Virus record (IMG/VR): IMGVR_UViG_3300020166_000010
Direction: 5' to 3' (one strand)
DNA from: a virus
Length of the DNA stretch: 64,000 nucleotides
The notes under the pieces were generated by a model. It was not told the origin of the DNA, ran no database searches, and saw nothing but the letters and a program-made list of their open reading frames with translations. Below, in pieces: positions 2,942 to 13,507 of the stretch (positions are counted from its first letter, which is position 1; each line of letters begins with the position of its first letter). The position numbers and the translations under genes were made by a program.

Positions 2942-3400
2942 TTATAGGGCCTCTACCTCAACTGGCTGGTTCATAACAAAAGCTTTACTTGCCCAGGTTT
3001 TACTATTAACTGCCTTATACTGGTCACTATTATATAGGTTCGTGTTATACCATAATCCGTTAATAGTTCCAACTTCTAAGCCAGCCATTATAGCTTCATC
3101 CATTAGGAGGATCTTATTTCCTTTTTTCGCGAACACTGTAAAGTAATTATCAGATCCGAATGGCTTATACTCTACTGTATGTAAGGCTCCTTTCTTATAT
3201 GCGTTTAATACTATTGAAGGATTATCATATAATCTCTGATCGTCAAAATCTCTAGCATCGTTACAGGTCATATAACCAGCTCTACACTTTGTTATAAAAC
3301 GGAATTTACCCGGTTGGGCTTCGTAGTAGTCGTTCTTAATAATGTTGATAGCCTGGATTCCAGTAACGTTGATAATGTCTTTGTTTTTTAATTCGTGCAT
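2942..3400 (-). CDS. early hypothetical protein
   Basis: 152-aa ORF behind early promoter cassette. Confidence 0.8.
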   Translation of the reverse strand: MHELKNKDIINVTGIQAINIIKNDYYEAQPGKFRFITKCRAGYMTCNDARDFDDQRLYDNPSIVLNAYKKGALHTVEYKPFGSDNYFTVFAKKGNKILLMDEAIMAGLEVGTINGLWYNTNLYNSDQYKAVNSKTWASKAFVMNQPVEVEAL

Positions 3401-3423
3401 GGTGTGGTGTTTAAGTGTTAGTA

Positions 3424-3517
3424 TTAATTATATAGTAAATATAACACTTATATTTGATATAAAAAAACTTTTGTGCATTTATTTTTAGTTGAGGTCCTAT
3501 TTATAATGATTATAAAT
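3424..3517 (-). promoter_or_regulatory. early promoter cassette (leftward) with ATTTATAATnATTATAAAT palindrome
   Basis: Near-identical to cassette at 13411-13507. Confidence 0.8.
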
Positions 3518-3590
3518 TAGGAAAGTTTTCACCCTAGATTTTTTTATATGAAACTAATTGCTTATATTTACTATATAATAATTAAAACAA
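3499..3590 (+). promoter_or_regulatory. early promoter cassette (rightward), shares palindrome 3499-3517
   Basis: Palindrome + AAAGTTTTCACCCTAGATTTTTTTATAT + TATATTTACTATA. Confidence 0.8.
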
Positions 3591-3597
3591 CTACTAC

Positions 3598-3951
3598 ATG
3601 AATATCAAAATCACCGCAGACGAAGAAAGAGTTATCAAATATGCACTCGCAGACTATACTAATAACTTAGTTGGTAAGGGAATTCTATATAATACCGCTG
3701 TTGGTATCTTAAATAAGATTAACGATGCTGGTATTGTGAAGGCAGCGAGAACACCTAAGGTGCTGGTTCAGAAGCAATATATGTTCTCATTCGAGAATGG
3801 CGGATGGAACACAGTGTGGGCTAAAACACTACCTGGTGCTAAGCGTCAAGCCTTATTAGAGTATAAGGATTCTGACTTAAATGTTCGATTAGATAGTGTT
3901 CACTTAGCTACTAAGAAAGGATTAGATTCGGCAATGTCCTTATTCTACTAG
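3598..3951 (+). CDS. early hypothetical protein
   Basis: 117-aa ORF behind early promoter. Confidence 0.8.
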   Translation: MNIKITADEERVIKYALADYTNNLVGKGILYNTAVGILNKINDAGIVKAARTPKVLVQKQYMFSFENGGWNTVWAKTLPGAKRQALLEYKDSDLNVRLDSVHLATKKGLDSAMSLFY

Positions 3952-3960
3952 GGAACCCTT

Positions 3961-4045
3961 ATTTATAATCATTATAAATTAAGAAAGTTTTCACCCTAGA
4001 TTTTTTTATATCAATAATTAGTGTTATATTTAACTATAATTAAAA
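3961..4045 (+). promoter_or_regulatory. early promoter cassette with palindrome 3961-3979
   Basis: Repeat of cassette. Confidence 0.8.
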
Positions 4046-4056
4046 ACGTAATCGTT

Positions 4057-4269
4057 ATGACAAATTTCAAAAACTTATCAATTTACATCTTAGTGATTTT
4101 AGCTGGTGTAGCTATTGCTGCCTTTATTATCCCAGCTGGTATCAAACTATTTTTTAGTGGTTTACTATGGATGATGAATAATCCTGCAACAGGGTTGGTA
4201 ATCTCTATTACATTCTTAATCGGATGTTTTGTTGGTAATTTTGAAACAAAGTCTAATAAATCAGTATAA
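4057..4269 (+). CDS. small two-TM membrane protein (start revised to ATG 4057)
   Basis: Two hydrophobic segments; the GTG at 4021 lies inside the promoter. Confidence 0.75.
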   Translation: MTNFKNLSIYILVILAGVAIAAFIIPAGIKLFFSGLLWMMNNPATGLVISITFLIGCFVGNFETKSNKSV

Positions 4270-4289
4270 TAATAAATCAAACGAACATT

Positions 4290-5426
4290 ATGAGCATTCA
4301 AACTTTATCACAAACCGCGGTAGCAACAAGTAAACAAGAGAGCATCAACGCTCAATCTTTACGCCGCACCCTTCCTTTCCGAGACATTACAATGATCGAC
4401 GAGACAACCATCGAGTATAAAGGAACTCGTATCCCAATTACCAAGCAAGCTTTTAAATCCTTACTATCTCTAGTAGGTATGAGCCAGTCGTTCGCAGACA
4501 AATTCTCTAAGCTGTTTAACAAAGAGACTAAAGCGCAATTCATTAATACTATGAAAAACGCAATGGCATCTAACGCAGGTAAACTTAGCAACGTTACATT
4601 GGTTCTAAATCCAATTTCGAAAGCTGTGATCTTATTTACTAAAGAAGACAAGCTGCAAATCTCAAACGATCAAATGATCCAAGTTGCAGAGAACATGATC
4701 TCAGATAGTTCAATGGGAGTATCTAGATGGACTACGGATCCAACAACAGGTATTATCACAATCGACGCTCATAACCCTAAGGCTGAGTTTGAGATCTTAG
4801 GATTAAGTGATGAGGTCTTTACTGGAGGAGTTACATTCCGTAATAGTCCACTAAGAGGATTTGAAGTTATGCCATACGTAAATCGCCAATGGTGTACTAA
4901 TGGTCTAACAACAGCTATGGCACAAGAAGCATACCAACTACATTCTTTAGATAATAAGAGTATGGAAAGCTTTTTCGAAAACATGCAAGGTTTAAGACGT
5001 AATAACTACGCTCCTGAAGGATTTGCTGATCGAGTTCGCCAAGCTAACAACACACCTGCTTCGCTACATGAAATGTCTTTTGCACATAACTTAATTTCTA
5101 AGCATGCTGGTGAAAGAGCAGAACAATGGGTACCTCTACAAGAGAACCTCAACGAATATAATAAAGCCGGATTTGATAAATTAACTAACGATCAAATGAA
5201 GATGGCTAAAACTAACCAATCGCTTTGGTCAGTAATTAATGGAGTTACACACTTTAGTAGTCATGGTAAAGGTATCATCGACACTAACATGCAACCTCAT
5301 AATGAAGCTGATATCCAAACACGTATTGGAAACCTATTAGGCAAAAAGAGTTTTGATCACGAAAACACTATGCCAAACCCTTTTAGTAAGGAACAGCTTC
5401 AACAGACTGGAGCTCTTCTGAACTAA
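4290..5426 (+). CDS. DUF932-like protein
   Basis: 378 aa; FRNS...PYVNRQWCTNGL resembles the R-x-(V/W)-C-x-N-G motif of DUF932; SLWSVINGVT C-terminal motif. Confidence 0.6.
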   Translation: MSIQTLSQTAVATSKQESINAQSLRRTLPFRDITMIDETTIEYKGTRIPITKQAFKSLLSLVGMSQSFADKFSKLFNKETKAQFINTMKNAMASNAGKLSNVTLVLNPISKAVILFTKEDKLQISNDQMIQVAENMISDSSMGVSRWTTDPTTGIITIDAHNPKAEFEILGLSDEVFTGGVTFRNSPLRGFEVMPYVNRQWCTNGLTTAMAQEAYQLHSLDNKSMESFFENMQGLRRNNYAPEGFADRVRQANNTPASLHEMSFAHNLISKHAGERAEQWVPLQENLNEYNKAGFDKLTNDQMKMAKTNQSLWSVINGVTHFSSHGKGIIDTNMQPHNEADIQTRIGNLLGKKSFDHENTMPNPFSKEQLQQTGALLN

Positions 5427-5454
5427 TGTTTAGTTTGATTTTAATTATTATTAC

Positions 5455-5485
5455 AAAAGGCAGGCGTTGTTTCCTGCCTTTTTTT
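5455..5485 (+). terminator. Rho-independent terminator
   Basis: AAAAGGCAGG-CGTTGTTT-CCTGCCTTTTTTT. Confidence 0.85.
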
Positions 5486-5509: not shown

Positions 5510-5595
5510 ATTTATAATGATTATAAATTACAAAAGTTTTCACCCTAGATTTTTTTATATCAATAAAAAGTGTTATATTTAATTATAATTAAAAA
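5510..5595 (+). promoter_or_regulatory. early promoter cassette with palindrome 5510-5528
   Basis: Repeat of cassette. Confidence 0.8.
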
Positions 5596-5910: not shown

Positions 5911-5984
5911 GGACTTATAGCTCAGCTGGTTAGAGCAGCGCACTCATAATGCGAAGGTCACAGGTTCGAACCCTGTTAGGTCCA
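5911..5984 (+). tRNA. tRNA with CAT anticodon (probably Ile2/lysidine type, otherwise Met)
   Basis: GGACTTA/TAGGTCC acceptor, TAGCTCAG D arm, CT-CAT-AA loop, GGTTCGAACC T arm. Confidence 0.9.
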
Positions 5985-5990
5985 CCCAGA

Positions 5991-6070
5991 ATTGTTAATA
6001 ACTTTTGAAAATAAGTTCACTAAAGTTTTCATATCCCACTAAAAAGGTTTATATTTACATATAACATTAA
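5991..6070 (+). promoter_or_regulatory. early promoter variant with TGTTAATAA upstream box
   Basis: TATATTTACATATAA core; same upstream box as 12873 and 59549 cassettes. Confidence 0.7.
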
Positions 6071-6081
6071 AACACCACGTA

Positions 6082-7167
6082 ATGAATCACTACACTATTA
6101 AGAAAACCAAAAACACATATACCCTAACTGAGGTACAATCAGGAACAACTCTAAACATTGGATCCACACATCCTAAATTTAACTATGTCGCTAAAGAAGA
6201 TTCTAAAGGATCTCGTATTATTAATATCAATGGCGACAAGTTCACCTCATCTAAAGATTATAGAGGTCACTATAAGAAGTCTACCCAAGCTCAAAAGCCA
6301 GCTAAGCCTCTTAATATTACCCTAACCAAGTTAGATGATTTAAATATTAATGCCAACTTATTCGTACCTATAGAGACCAATACAGTCTTTGACAAATTCG
6401 CATCTACTGCAGGTGGTATTATGCCAGGTACAAACATCATGGCGGCCGGAGCCCCAGGTGTTGGTAAAACTACGGTCCTATTAGATCTATTAAGTACTGC
6501 ACATAAGAGTGGTAAGAAGGTCCTATTCATCTCAGCTGAAATGTCTCAGATAGATATGGCCCGCTACTTACAACGCTTTCCTCACTGGGGTCAGTTGCCG
6601 ATCTTATTCCTAGCAGACTATGTGGATGAATGTCCAAAGACTGTAATCGAACAAGTCTTAAATGGAGGTTGGGATTTGGTCCTAACTGATAGCTACACTG
6701 AAGTTAACGACACCGTAAAAGAAGCTTGTAACCTAACCCGTGGTAAAGTTGAGAAATGGTTCCTAGACCTAATGATCTCAAATAACAAAGGTGTTAACAA
6801 GCCCGGAATCTACACAACCTTTATTACCATCTTGCAATTATCTAAAGGAGGTCAATTCGTCGGATCTAACAAACTAAAACACATGACCACGAGCATGATG
6901 AGCTTGGACTGGGAAGGTGGAGAAAACGCAGGTCGTAGATACATGGAATTCTCTAAAAACCGAGTAGGTGCAGTAAACAAAAAACTTTACTTTTCTTTAG
7001 AAGGCGGAGTAAGCTTTGACGAAGCCCGATACGCTAGGGATCTATTTAACGACGAGTTGGTATCTACAGAACGCAAGCAATTAGCGACGGAAGCAGATGC
7101 CTTCGACAAGTTATTCGGATTCAGTGAAGTAGATGCCGAAGACTTAGAAGCTCATATCGAAATATAA
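6082..7167 (+). CDS. RadA/Sms-like (RecA-fold) ATPase lacking Zn finger and Lon-like domain
   Basis: GGIMPG...GAPGVGKT Walker A, VLFISAEMS, LVLTDS, KGGQFVGSNKLKH, FSKNRVG. Confidence 0.8.
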   Translation: MNHYTIKKTKNTYTLTEVQSGTTLNIGSTHPKFNYVAKEDSKGSRIININGDKFTSSKDYRGHYKKSTQAQKPAKPLNITLTKLDDLNINANLFVPIETNTVFDKFASTAGGIMPGTNIMAAGAPGVGKTTVLLDLLSTAHKSGKKVLFISAEMSQIDMARYLQRFPHWGQLPILFLADYVDECPKTVIEQVLNGGWDLVLTDSYTEVNDTVKEACNLTRGKVEKWFLDLMISNNKGVNKPGIYTTFITILQLSKGGQFVGSNKLKHMTTSMMSLDWEGGENAGRRYMEFSKNRVGAVNKKLYFSLEGGVSFDEARYARDLFNDELVSTERKQLATEADAFDKLFGFSEVDAEDLEAHIEI

Positions 7168-7193
7168 GGGTCCTATTAGGATTCCTAAGCCTT

Positions 7194-7222
7194 CCTCCCG
7201 GTTATGTGGTGTTTCCGGGAGG
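7194..7222 (+). other. GC-rich 3' UTR hairpin whose loop is antisense to the radA-like leader
   Basis: CCTCCCGG-TTATGTGGTGTTT-CCGGGAGG. Confidence 0.8.
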
Positions 7223-7783
7223 TTTGGTGTATTTGGAGCATTGGGGCACCTGTATATCCTCGGACCGGTCATGGTAAAAAACGCTCCTCCGGTGTGAGCC
7301 AATTGGCGTTGGGGTTTAAGGTTCCTACAGGGACTTTACTTGGATGCTATATTTAGGGATTACTTGGGAATACCCTTGGATGGCTAGGAGAATCCTTACA
7401 AGCCTATCTAGCTTTCTTATATCTCTATTAGGTTATTATAGGAGGATGGAGTTTTAAGATCTTATATACCTATACCTATATCTCTATTACTAGGATCCGT
7501 ATTACTTGGATAGTTGTTTGCCTTATCTTGCTTGTCTCTTCTTAGATCTCTTATATCTTTCTTTCTTTTCTTATTCTTCTTGTTGGGATTCTTATTCTTA
7601 TCTCTTCTTTGTTATCTATTATGATTGATTCTTTTGGTCACGTGCGAGGGTCCATTTTACAAGAATCTTTGCACGCTCGGGTGGTTTGTAGTGTGGTCGG
7701 TCAAAAGGATTGATATTCTACAGGTTTTTAGGATCGGGTTCTTAAGGAGTGAGCCTATATATACCTCTTCTTTTTGTCACCTT

Positions 7784-7872
7784 ATTTGGAATGATTATAA
7801 ATTACAAAAGTTTTCACCCTAGATTTTTTTATATCAATAATTAGTGTTATATTTACTATATAATAATTAAAA
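7784..7872 (+). promoter_or_regulatory. early promoter cassette with degenerate palindrome 7784-7802
   Basis: ATTTGGAATGATTATAAAT + cassette. Confidence 0.8.
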
Positions 7873-8791: not shown

Positions 8792-9850
8792 ATGAAAATT
8801 AAATTTATTATAATCGCATTTTTTGTAGCAGCTACATGTAATGCACAGAAAACCCTTGTATCTGACATCACAGATGTAGATCTAAGTAATACAGAGCAAT
8901 CAGGATATGTTAATTGGGATTTCACCAATAATACAACCGGATATGCCTGGACCTGGGGAGCACCTGGAATGCTAGTCTATGGAGATGCGCCTGAAATGTG
9001 CTTGGACATAGAAGCTGAAATTAAAAACATATCTCACGTATGGGGAGCTGGTATCTCTATTGGAGTAGATGAATCCTCAACAAACAGTGAACTAAAGTAT
9101 AATGGCATTAATAACTATTATTTATCAGTAGAAGACGATGTTGTTGGATTATTTAGAGGAACCAATAACACACAAGAAGATTTCATGGCTGATACACTAG
9201 CATACGTCGGTGTGACAATTGATCAAACTGAATGGTATAAATTAAGATTAAAAATAGAAGCAGATACGATATATGGATATGTTAACGATGTTCTATACAT
9301 TAACCATAAGGTAGATAGTATACAAAAGAACGGTAAGTTTGCTATAGTATCTTCTAATAGTGAAAATACATATAAGAATATAAAAGCAAGATATCACAAA
9401 GATCCATACTATATTAGTAGTGATACTATTGTAGAATTTGTAAGTGATGTTAATCACCCAGAATGGAATAACTTACCTGTCACTCGATTAGATAGTGTTG
9501 AAACTGTAGTAGAAGCCGATGGATTAGATCATTTCATAAGCCATTATATACAATATAAAGAATCTGAATCAATTAATATAGGAGATGATGATTGTGATTG
9601 CATTTGCCCAGCAGTAACTACCCTATCGATATATCCAAATCCAGTATCTGAATATATTAACGTAAGTATACAACAGCCTGAAGGAACACTCAAGGTTTAT
9701 AGCATGCATGGATCATCTGTTAAATCCTATGATTTAAAATATGGAATTAATAGAATAGATATGACAAGATATCCAATAGGACATTATTTATTCAAAGTAG
9801 AATACGAAGGAAGAAAGGCATTAATAGAAAAGATAATAGTAACTCATTAA
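8792..9850 (+). CDS. secreted protein with T9SS type A C-terminal sorting domain
   Basis: Sec signal (CNA-Q), beta-sandwich core, C-terminal LSIYPNPVSEYINV...KVYSMHG...IDMTRYPIGHYLFKV...KIIV. Confidence 0.85.
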   Translation: MKIKFIIIAFFVAATCNAQKTLVSDITDVDLSNTEQSGYVNWDFTNNTTGYAWTWGAPGMLVYGDAPEMCLDIEAEIKNISHVWGAGISIGVDESSTNSELKYNGINNYYLSVEDDVVGLFRGTNNTQEDFMADTLAYVGVTIDQTEWYKLRLKIEADTIYGYVNDVLYINHKVDSIQKNGKFAIVSSNSENTYKNIKARYHKDPYYISSDTIVEFVSDVNHPEWNNLPVTRLDSVETVVEADGLDHFISHYIQYKESESINIGDDDCDCICPAVTTLSIYPNPVSEYINVSIQQPEGTLKVYSMHGSSVKSYDLKYGINRIDMTRYPIGHYLFKVEYEGRKALIEKIIVTH

Positions 9851-10720: not shown

Positions 10721-10788
10721 GTGAAAATAAATGCATAAAAGTTTTTTTATCCCAATAAAAAGTGTTATATTTAATTATAATTAAAAAA
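10721..10788 (+). promoter_or_regulatory. early promoter core (no palindrome)
   Basis: AAAATAAATGCATAAAAGTTTTTTTAT...GTGTTATATTTAATTATAAT. Confidence 0.75.
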
Positions 10789-13410: not shown

Positions 13411-13507
13411 ATTTATAATCATTATAAATAGGACCTCAACCCAAAATAAATGCACAAAAGTTTTTTTATATCAATAAAAAGTGTTATATTTAACTATAAT
13501 TAAAAAA
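13411..13507 (+). promoter_or_regulatory. early promoter cassette with palindrome 13411-13429
   Basis: Near-identical to 3424-3517 (-). Confidence 0.8.

Follow-up and report, generated by a model that had tools for sequence, protein, structure and literature searches.

A terminator-like hairpin loop antisense to the start regions of its own ATPase gene and of a second early gene in phages of apparent Bacteroidota

The 64,000-nucleotide (nt) stretch of DNA analysed here (IMG/VR virus record IMGVR_UViG_3300020166_000010; hereafter the window) is apparently part of a large phage genome and encodes an early RecA-type ATPase whose gene is followed by a terminator-like hairpin. The loop of this hairpin is complementary to the leader of the same gene, as far as the start codon. 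It also complements the leader of another early gene, here called gene X, and across related phages the loop and the two leaders change together. It is very likely, judging from the comparison of these loci, that the match between loop and leader did not arise by chance and marks a real RNA–RNA control element. We further consider it rather probable that the loop acts as an antisense to both leaders, repressing translation in cis and in trans as a form of negative feedback. The features on which the argument rests are the following.

6022–6057, plus strand: predicted early promoter of the ATPase gene, with upstream element AAAGTTTT (6022–6029) and box TATATTTA (6050–6057)
6063–6081, plus strand: predicted ATPase leader (5' untranslated region, UTR), short, A/C-rich and without Shine-Dalgarno sequence, its start placed from the position of the −7 box
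6070–6082, plus strand: leader site B, AAACACCACGTAA, complementary to the entire loop, its last base being the A of the ATG (6082–6084)
6082–7167, plus strand: open reading frame (ORF) of the ATPase, 361 amino acids, a 'radA-like' gene for a P-loop ATPase of the RecA/RadA(Sms)/DnaB-C/KaiC type
7194–7222, plus strand: terminator-like hairpin CCTCCCGG-TTATGTGGTGTTT-CCGGGAGG, with arms at 7194–7201 and 7215–7222 and the loop at 7202–7214
7223–7236, plus strand: interrupted T-run TTTGGTGTATTTGG after the stem; in relatives, 5–7 T and then G(G)TGT
2942–3400, minus strand: gene X, encoding a 152-amino-acid early protein that is orthologous across these phages
3403–3412, minus strand: gene X leader site AAACACCACA, all 10 bases of which pair with the loop; its end lies 3 nt short of the ATG at 3400

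The ATPase ORF matches KaiC ATPase and DnaB_C in Pfam, DnaB-like helicase and Sak4-like in PHROG, and the RecA and RadA profiles built from PDB. Its leader is predicted to be unstructured (about −0.3 kcal/mol). The hairpin begins 27 nt past the ATPase stop codon and has a G+C-rich stem of 8 bp, 7 of them G:C pairs, with a fold energy of −15.8 kcal/mol; in both the minimum-free-energy and the centroid fold, the loop is essentially open. The first-pass annotation of the window had reported that this loop pairs along its whole length with the start region of its own gene, and the sequence bears this out: all 13 bases of TTATGTGGTGTTT (reverse complement AAACACCACATAA), which we refer to as anti-leader B', pair with 6070–6082, the only G:U pair involving leader G6079. 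Predicted duplex energies of the loop are −16.7 kcal/mol with the ATPase leader, −13.7 with the gene X leader and −12.8 with the leader of a ligase gene, and −7 to −11 with other early leaders. Searched on both strands of the window, the core AAACACCAC occurs three times, against 0.31 expected and with none of 100 shuffles reaching three, namely in the ATPase leader, in the hairpin loop and in the gene X leader (3404–3412, minus strand).

As expected of an intrinsic terminator, the G+C-rich stem-loop lies shortly past the stop codon, and a hairpin occupies the equivalent position in 16 related versions of the locus. The loop, 13 nt in the window and 8–14 nt in relatives, exceeds that of a typical intrinsic terminator (3–5 nt), and a standard terminator scan missed the window hairpin because it accepts only loops of 8 nt or fewer. 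The T-run comprises 5–7 T in L016, L017, L029 and L063 (L numbers denote related loci) and is weak in others. Separately, a short sequence G(G)TGT(T) recurs after the T-run of the orthologous terminators in the window (7223–7236), L001, L016, L017, L019, L020 and L029, as in TTTTTGTGGTGTTTGG of L019 and TTTTTTGGTGTCTGG of L020; since it is present whatever the loop class, it is not an anti-leader.

When IMG/VR was scanned twice with the ATPase, 29 and 79 loci at 35–92% identity were retrieved, and the leader and 3' UTR of each were compared. The first-pass annotation had proposed co-variation of loop and leader in related radA-like loci as a check, and such co-variation was found. Within the clade at 56% identity or more (56–92%), we tabulated 14 sequence versions, or 16 when L011 and L012, which were scanned, are counted. 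A hairpin lies behind the ATPase stop codon in all 14 tabulated versions (and all 16 scanned), usually with a T-run after it, and in 14 of 14 its loop forms a contiguous Watson–Crick run of 7–9 nt with the end of the leader, immediately before the ATG; the pairing of loop and leader is 7–11 nt long in these 14 versions. A loop set against its own leader gives a mean run of 8.0, compared with 4.2 between motif classes, of which there are four.

Class 1, leader ACACCAC and loop GTGGTGT: window, L001, L003, L010–L016, L029 and L060
Class 2, leader CATCCAC and loop GTGGATG: L004 group, L019, L021 and L045
Class 3, leader CATCAC and loop GTGATG: L017
Class 4, leader CAGCTCAAT and loop ATTGAGCTG: L020 and L052, each with two such loops

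While the loops follow the leaders, the stem sequences are mutually unrelated (CCTCCCGG, GAATCCTGACA, TCCGGG, GGGACCTGG, GAGAGGTAGG and GGGCCCAG). The protein tree mixes classes 1 and 2, placing L021 and L045 as sister to L010–L016 and grouping L029 and L060 with L017, which implies several compensatory switches, though the tree leaves the base of the clade unsettled. Given that relatives share motifs, a rank test of own against cross pairings is conservative, and the argument rests on the motif classes instead. In several 7-kb loci, the 7–8-mer is found solely at the leaders and the loop, and the complementarity is confined to the predicted transcribed leader, beginning in relatives 3–6 nt after the promoter box. 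A genome-wide count of 7-mers in six related contigs showed no enrichment over a reversed-pattern control, and the other matches lay inside coding sequence. As in cis-acting 5'-UTR/3'-UTR pairs of the icaR/hbs type, the 3' end is complementary to its own initiation region and the pairing is kept by compensatory change.

The loop also tracks the leader of gene X. The protein has no match in Pfam, PHROG or PDB profiles; its leaders were found by scanning the 7-kb loci for the loop complement, the genes behind them being orthologues at 34–85% identity, and a profile search added further orthologues. The 10/10 match to the leader of this divergent early gene, claimed in the first-pass annotation, is present, and in six of seven phages, including three class-2 lineages, a motif of the matching class stands directly before the gene X ATG, as follows.

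Window and L001 phage (class 1): AAACACCACA, 10 bp with the loop
L060 phage: ACACCATG, 8 bp with one G:U
L045 phage (class 2): CATCCACT, pairing with the whole 8-nt loop
L004 phage (class 2): CATCCAC, 7 bp
L021 phage (class 2): AACATCCAC, 9 bp
L012 phage: AACACACCATT, about 5 bp only

Compensatory change is thus seen at three sites, and the co-variation of the loop, its own leader and the gene X leader is hard to explain unless the loop pairs with both leaders, which supports action in trans. Such conserved complementarity to the start region of another mRNA is one mark of small RNAs (sRNAs) derived from 3' UTRs. The suggestion that the loop displays an anti-leader acting in cis and possibly in trans is likewise supported by this three-way co-variation.

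Nine lineages have a further 3'-UTR segment, A', located upstream of the hairpin and complementary to the 5' leader part in the form found in that same lineage, as in the following loci.

L010–L016: TATCTAATTAA
L017: GTAATTAAAAG
L029: ACTGTAATTAAA
L020 and L052: TATAATTAAAA
L026: GTAATCAATC

In lineages with A', essentially the whole leader is matched, from 3–6 nt past the promoter box; the window is without A', yet it has the longest loop match. A precedes B in the leader, and A' precedes B' in the 3' UTR, so that the helices would cross as in a pseudoknot and could not merge into a single continuous duplex. L020 and L052 also carry two successive hairpins with loops AATTGAGCTG and ATTGAGCC, both complementary to the same leader motif, and with the linear A' there are three anti-leader elements in one ATPase 3' UTR. 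In the more distant relatives L062, L064, L093 and L098 (45–48% identity), a linear complement of the leader directly follows the stop codon, split around the hairpin in L062 and L064 and contiguous before it in L093 and L098. These linear complements point to selection for 5'–3' pairing as such.

The reach of the element appears to be narrow. Among 14 terminator-like hairpins in the window, only that of the ATPase matches an early leader by at least 9 nt; the other 13 display no anti-leader loop, and some 14 further leaders behind early promoters of the window have no match. These counts indicate a small regulon of two genes, occasionally three, rather than the early-gene shut-off system at large that the first-pass annotation had envisaged. 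Nor did a genome-wide arrangement emerge from RNAduplex when leaders were set against the 3' regions of 86 ORFs (mean −9.6 kcal/mol for own and −9.0 for cross pairs); among real genes, only 6082–7167 and 4290–5426 stand out in that scan. Further candidate partners were rejected. The ligase start singled out earlier does carry the match (AACATCACAT, 10 nt with one G:U), but it is lost in the orthologue leaders of four relatives, and we attribute it to chance. A third early leader bears AAACACCACA in the nearest relative, and its orthologue in a class-2 phage is without the class-2 motif, which makes it inconsistent as a target. A relation of leader and loop to the 3' end of 16S rRNA was dropped since the motifs of classes 2 to 4 would not be expected to fit it.

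The most likely function, as we infer it from these comparisons, is occlusion of a start region that lacks a Shine-Dalgarno sequence, that is, translational repression or feedback. The comparisons themselves show the complementarity, its place in the predicted transcript, its conservation and the compensatory change at three sites; pairing in RNA, the repression itself and the balance between cis and trans action are inferred. In the mechanism that we propose, the enlarged loop at the 3' end of the ATPase mRNA would display an antisense to the last ~7–13 nt of the leader up to the start codon, and the same loop would target the corresponding stretch of the gene X leader. Given that initiation in Bacteroidota relies on an unstructured A-rich leader and not on a Shine-Dalgarno sequence, pairing with the loop is expected to block binding of the 30S subunit. 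Loop and leader could pair inside one full-length mRNA, or a 3' fragment that outlives the rest could act in trans. The ATPase mRNA would then be translatable mainly during its own transcription, before its 3' end exists, and accumulating 3' ends would also silence gene X. A more elaborate version, which we put forward only as a tentative possibility, is that A' and loop B' form a two-part 3' element that closes the mRNA in crossing order, and that the 3' end outlasts decay of the mRNA body and serves as a small RNA timing the shut-off of the ATPase and gene X. In such a scheme, A' could touch all early leaders with the conserved 5' part, and the whole would amount to a timer free of both Hfq and Shine-Dalgarno sequences.

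Several observations weigh against repression by the loop, or narrow what may be claimed for it. A closed loop of 13 nt cannot form the full 13-bp helix without strain or partial opening of the stem, and the helix actually formed is probably one of 7–9 bp. The T-run behind the window hairpin (TTTGGTGTATTT) is interrupted, and the transcript ends are predicted. The loops are G/T-rich and the leaders A/C-rich, and because of this composition a shuffled loop attains 7 nt in 4% of trials per locus. L023 and L025 lack the feature, L026 and L063 retain just the A' segment of it, and most relatives at 40–45% identity are also without it; the gene X leader of the L012 phage pairs only weakly. The mismatch types, one G:U against two A:C, show no preference for the sense RNA strand. 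Finally, no cultured relative of the phage was found, the best protein match being to an uncultured megaphage at 35% amino-acid identity.

The same pairing might instead be protective or activating, shielding the transcript ends from ribonucleases or keeping terminating ribosomes near the start, and thereby raising or prolonging expression. The hbs mRNA of Bacillus subtilis offers a precedent (PMC5737220), and in many loci the whole leader is covered from approximately its predicted start point. Moreover, the complement abuts both the stop and the start codon in the distant relatives, where a terminating ribosome would open the duplex and sit beside the AUG. We nevertheless regard this as unlikely: the pairing takes in the bases immediately upstream of the AUG, and sometimes part of the AUG itself, in a leader that lacks a Shine-Dalgarno sequence, where occlusion should hinder initiation, and the match to gene X in trans is ill-suited to a purely end-protecting role. 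There is a similarly small chance that the hairpin mainly yields a stable 3'-UTR-derived sRNA aimed at gene X or other leaders, the match to its own leader being secondary and due, for example, to shared cassette ancestry. Co-variation of the gene X leader with the loop would fit such an sRNA, as would the AAACACCACA copy in the third early leader of the nearest relative the repetition of promoter-leader cassettes within each phage and, in L016, a duplicate of the same leader on a 57-amino-acid ORF. The most widely conserved partner is, however, the element's own leader, whose match persists where no gene X was found (L017, L019 and L020/L052) and, as linear complements, in the distant relatives, whereas the gene X match weakens in the L012 phage and the orthologue of the third gene in a class-2 phage lacks the motif.

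Two further explanations dispense with RNA pairing altogether. Inverted repeats flanking an ORF could act as DNA, as protein-binding or recombination sites such as the termini of a mobile cassette, the ends of an invertible segment or paired operators. The repeats do bracket the ORF, and they abut start and stop codons in the distant relatives and in gene 4290–5426; both ends of a protein-recognized pair would be expected to co-vary too, and the mismatches favour neither strand. We consider this very improbable, since gene X, the homologue of 4290–5426 and the ATPase form a module that is syntenic across phages, the bracketed ORF encodes a RecA-type ATPase and no transposase or recombinase, and the core repeats measure just 7–9 bp. 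One copy, furthermore, lies exactly in a hairpin loop, and the stem of that hairpin keeps its structure but not its sequence; the A and B segments are in crossing rather than mirrored order, and the complementarity ends at the predicted transcription start. A coincidence or artefact of composition, in which G/T-rich loops match A/C-rich leaders and the similarity is passively inherited, would account for the runs reached by shuffled loops, for the class-1 motif common to many relatives by descent and for the ligase match that proved to be chance. It is scarcely credible given that 14 of 14 tabulated versions reach at least 7 nt, that four motif classes, one of them unrelated in sequence (CAGCTCAAT), each have a matching loop, and that loops follow leaders while stems diverge. 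The three-way co-variation with gene X and the single match among 14 window hairpins speak against it as well. Repression in cis and trans stands as our preferred reading of the element.

Communication between the two ends of a bacterial mRNA has precedents. Anti-RBS sequences located hundreds of nucleotides downstream can pair with the ribosome-binding site (RBS), block translation and promote decay (PMC12697547). The regulation by 3' UTRs of decay and translation initiation of their own mRNAs has been reviewed (PMC5502269). In B. subtilis, an interaction between the 5' and 3' UTRs of the hbs mRNA governs the action of ribonucleases and links stability to translation (PMC5737220), and in the icaR mRNA of Staphylococcus aureus, pairing of the 3' UTR with the 5' UTR is reported to control translation (PMC3868564). 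The phage element resembles icaR in that a 3'-UTR sequence complements its own initiation region, the cis anti-start logic proposed here. In icaR, an anti-Shine-Dalgarno motif is directed against the Shine-Dalgarno sequence. The phage leader, in contrast, has no Shine-Dalgarno sequence, and a gene-specific antisense lies in the terminator loop, which co-varies within the clade and also matches a second leader. A comparable logic is found in hok of plasmid R1, a type I toxin-antitoxin system, in which fbi/tac pairing between the 5' and 3' ends keeps the full-length mRNA inert until slow 3' trimming activates it. Control in the phage would similarly be built into both transcript ends; unlike the toxin hok, however, its gene encodes a RecA-type ATPase of a lytic-type phage, and no antitoxin RNA was seen.

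Among regulators acting in trans, 3'-UTR-derived sRNAs such as CpxQ and s-SodF usually have a single-stranded seed upstream of the terminator. The phage element shares with them the putative use of the terminator end of an mRNA as a pairing regulator of another start region, that of gene X, and differs in that its seed would be the terminator loop itself and that the parent mRNA is also a target. In P1 and P7, short sequences of c4 displayed in loops pair with the ribosome-binding region of downstream genes from the same transcript, with compensatory differences between the two phages setting specificity, and the hairpin loop of IS10 RNA-OUT is directed at RNA-IN, pairing with its 5' end and start region. 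Whereas c4 lies upstream of its target and serves immunity, and RNA-OUT is a separate antisense transcript, the phage element is a 3' terminator with targets that lack Shine-Dalgarno sequences. Terminator loops of the Escherichia coli sRNAs SdsR, RseX and ArrS are a regulatory determinant in fepA control, 'likely without base-pairing' (PMC11979758). The phage loop would likewise be a regulatory part of a terminator, but it belongs to an mRNA and not to a dedicated sRNA, and the evidence is specifically for base pairing. The principle is thus known from icaR, hok, 3'-UTR sRNAs and c4, and the element constitutes no new category; this form of it has not been described before.

A companion case lies upstream in the window, where the first-pass annotation had reported the same pattern at 4264/5424.

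4290–5426: gene for a protein of 378 amino acids, PHROG 1362, function not assigned
4263–4289 and 5427–5455: leader and trailer of this gene, forming a ~25-nt A/T-rich duplex (−16.6 kcal/mol)

The trailer complement begins right after the stop codon, and a terminator at 5461–5480 comes next. The pairing is real in the sequence but is kept, with compensatory change, only in the two closest relatives, L109 (99%) and L111 (83%), and is absent at 65% identity or less; we take it to be a younger instance of this tendency, limited to the lineage. The loop of the terminator at 5461–5480 is CGTTGTTT, and L109 and L111 keep it (CGTTGTTT or CGTAGTTT) on differing stems (GGCAGG, GGGTGG and GGCTGG). This loop complements AAACAAC (7 nt) in the leaders of genes 3598, 7884 and 48664; these leaders are of low complexity and the match may mean little.

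The putative promoter of the ATPase gene at 6022–6057 falls within the family of early promoters repeated in this phage, and it is similar to the Bacteroidota −33/−7 type. A box TTATATTTA with an upstream T-run precedes ~14–16 genes of the window. The promoter cassette, ~65 bp long and nearly identical in ~14–16 copies, reads ...AAAGTTTT..TTTTTATATCAATAA..GTGTTATATTTA and runs into a shared leader start, TATAATTAAAA; the early leaders share this 5' part (approximately), and the 3' part before the ATG varies. Copies were located at the following positions.

~3440–3600, 4000–4035, 5510–5585, 7790–7860, 10740–10775 and 13450–13495: cassette copies
63950, 59571, 53720 and 48696, minus strand: cassette copies

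The repeated cassette recalls the promoter-stem-loop cassettes of T4-type phages.

As for the phage itself, DNA-level searches with the window matched only tRNA, and in an Rfam scan of the window tRNAs alone reached the gathering score; between 5900 and 7900, nothing relevant appeared in Rfam at E ≤ 1. Eleven tRNA genes were found, ten of them clustered on the minus strand at 51.9–57.8 kb. Two neighbouring features are of note.

5911–5986: tRNA-Met (CAT) gene, directly upstream of the ATPase promoter
8792–9850: gene for a Por_Secre_tail protein (type IX secretion C-terminal sorting domain), in an early operon

It is chiefly this sorting domain that points to a host in Bacteroidota, a phylum that these phages appear to infect. 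No Shine-Dalgarno sequence was seen upstream of the early genes of the window. Post-transcriptional control in Bacteroidota operates on mRNAs that mostly lack Shine-Dalgarno sequences, and Hfq, the classical sRNA chaperone, is to our knowledge generally absent from the phylum. Between the ATPase hairpin and the next promoter lies an apparently non-coding stretch of ~570–660 nt (7223–7790), likewise without Rfam match. The G+C content is 0.48 at 7100–7400, against ~0.33 elsewhere, and 7400–7700 is strongly pyrimidine-rich, with AT skew down to −0.56. Given that this stretch adjoins a replication/recombination ATPase gene, it could be an origin region or an as yet unrecognized RNA.

Little is understood of how Bacteroidota and their phages exert post-transcriptional control, and the locus described here is a compact element with unusually good comparative support in an unstudied clade of Bacteroidota-type phages. 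If our interpretation is true, terminator loops can be genuine base-pairing seeds, and phages would use communication between 5' and 3' UTRs to dose a replication/recombination ATPase. It would also mean that comparing metagenomic phage contigs can reveal such elements without culture.

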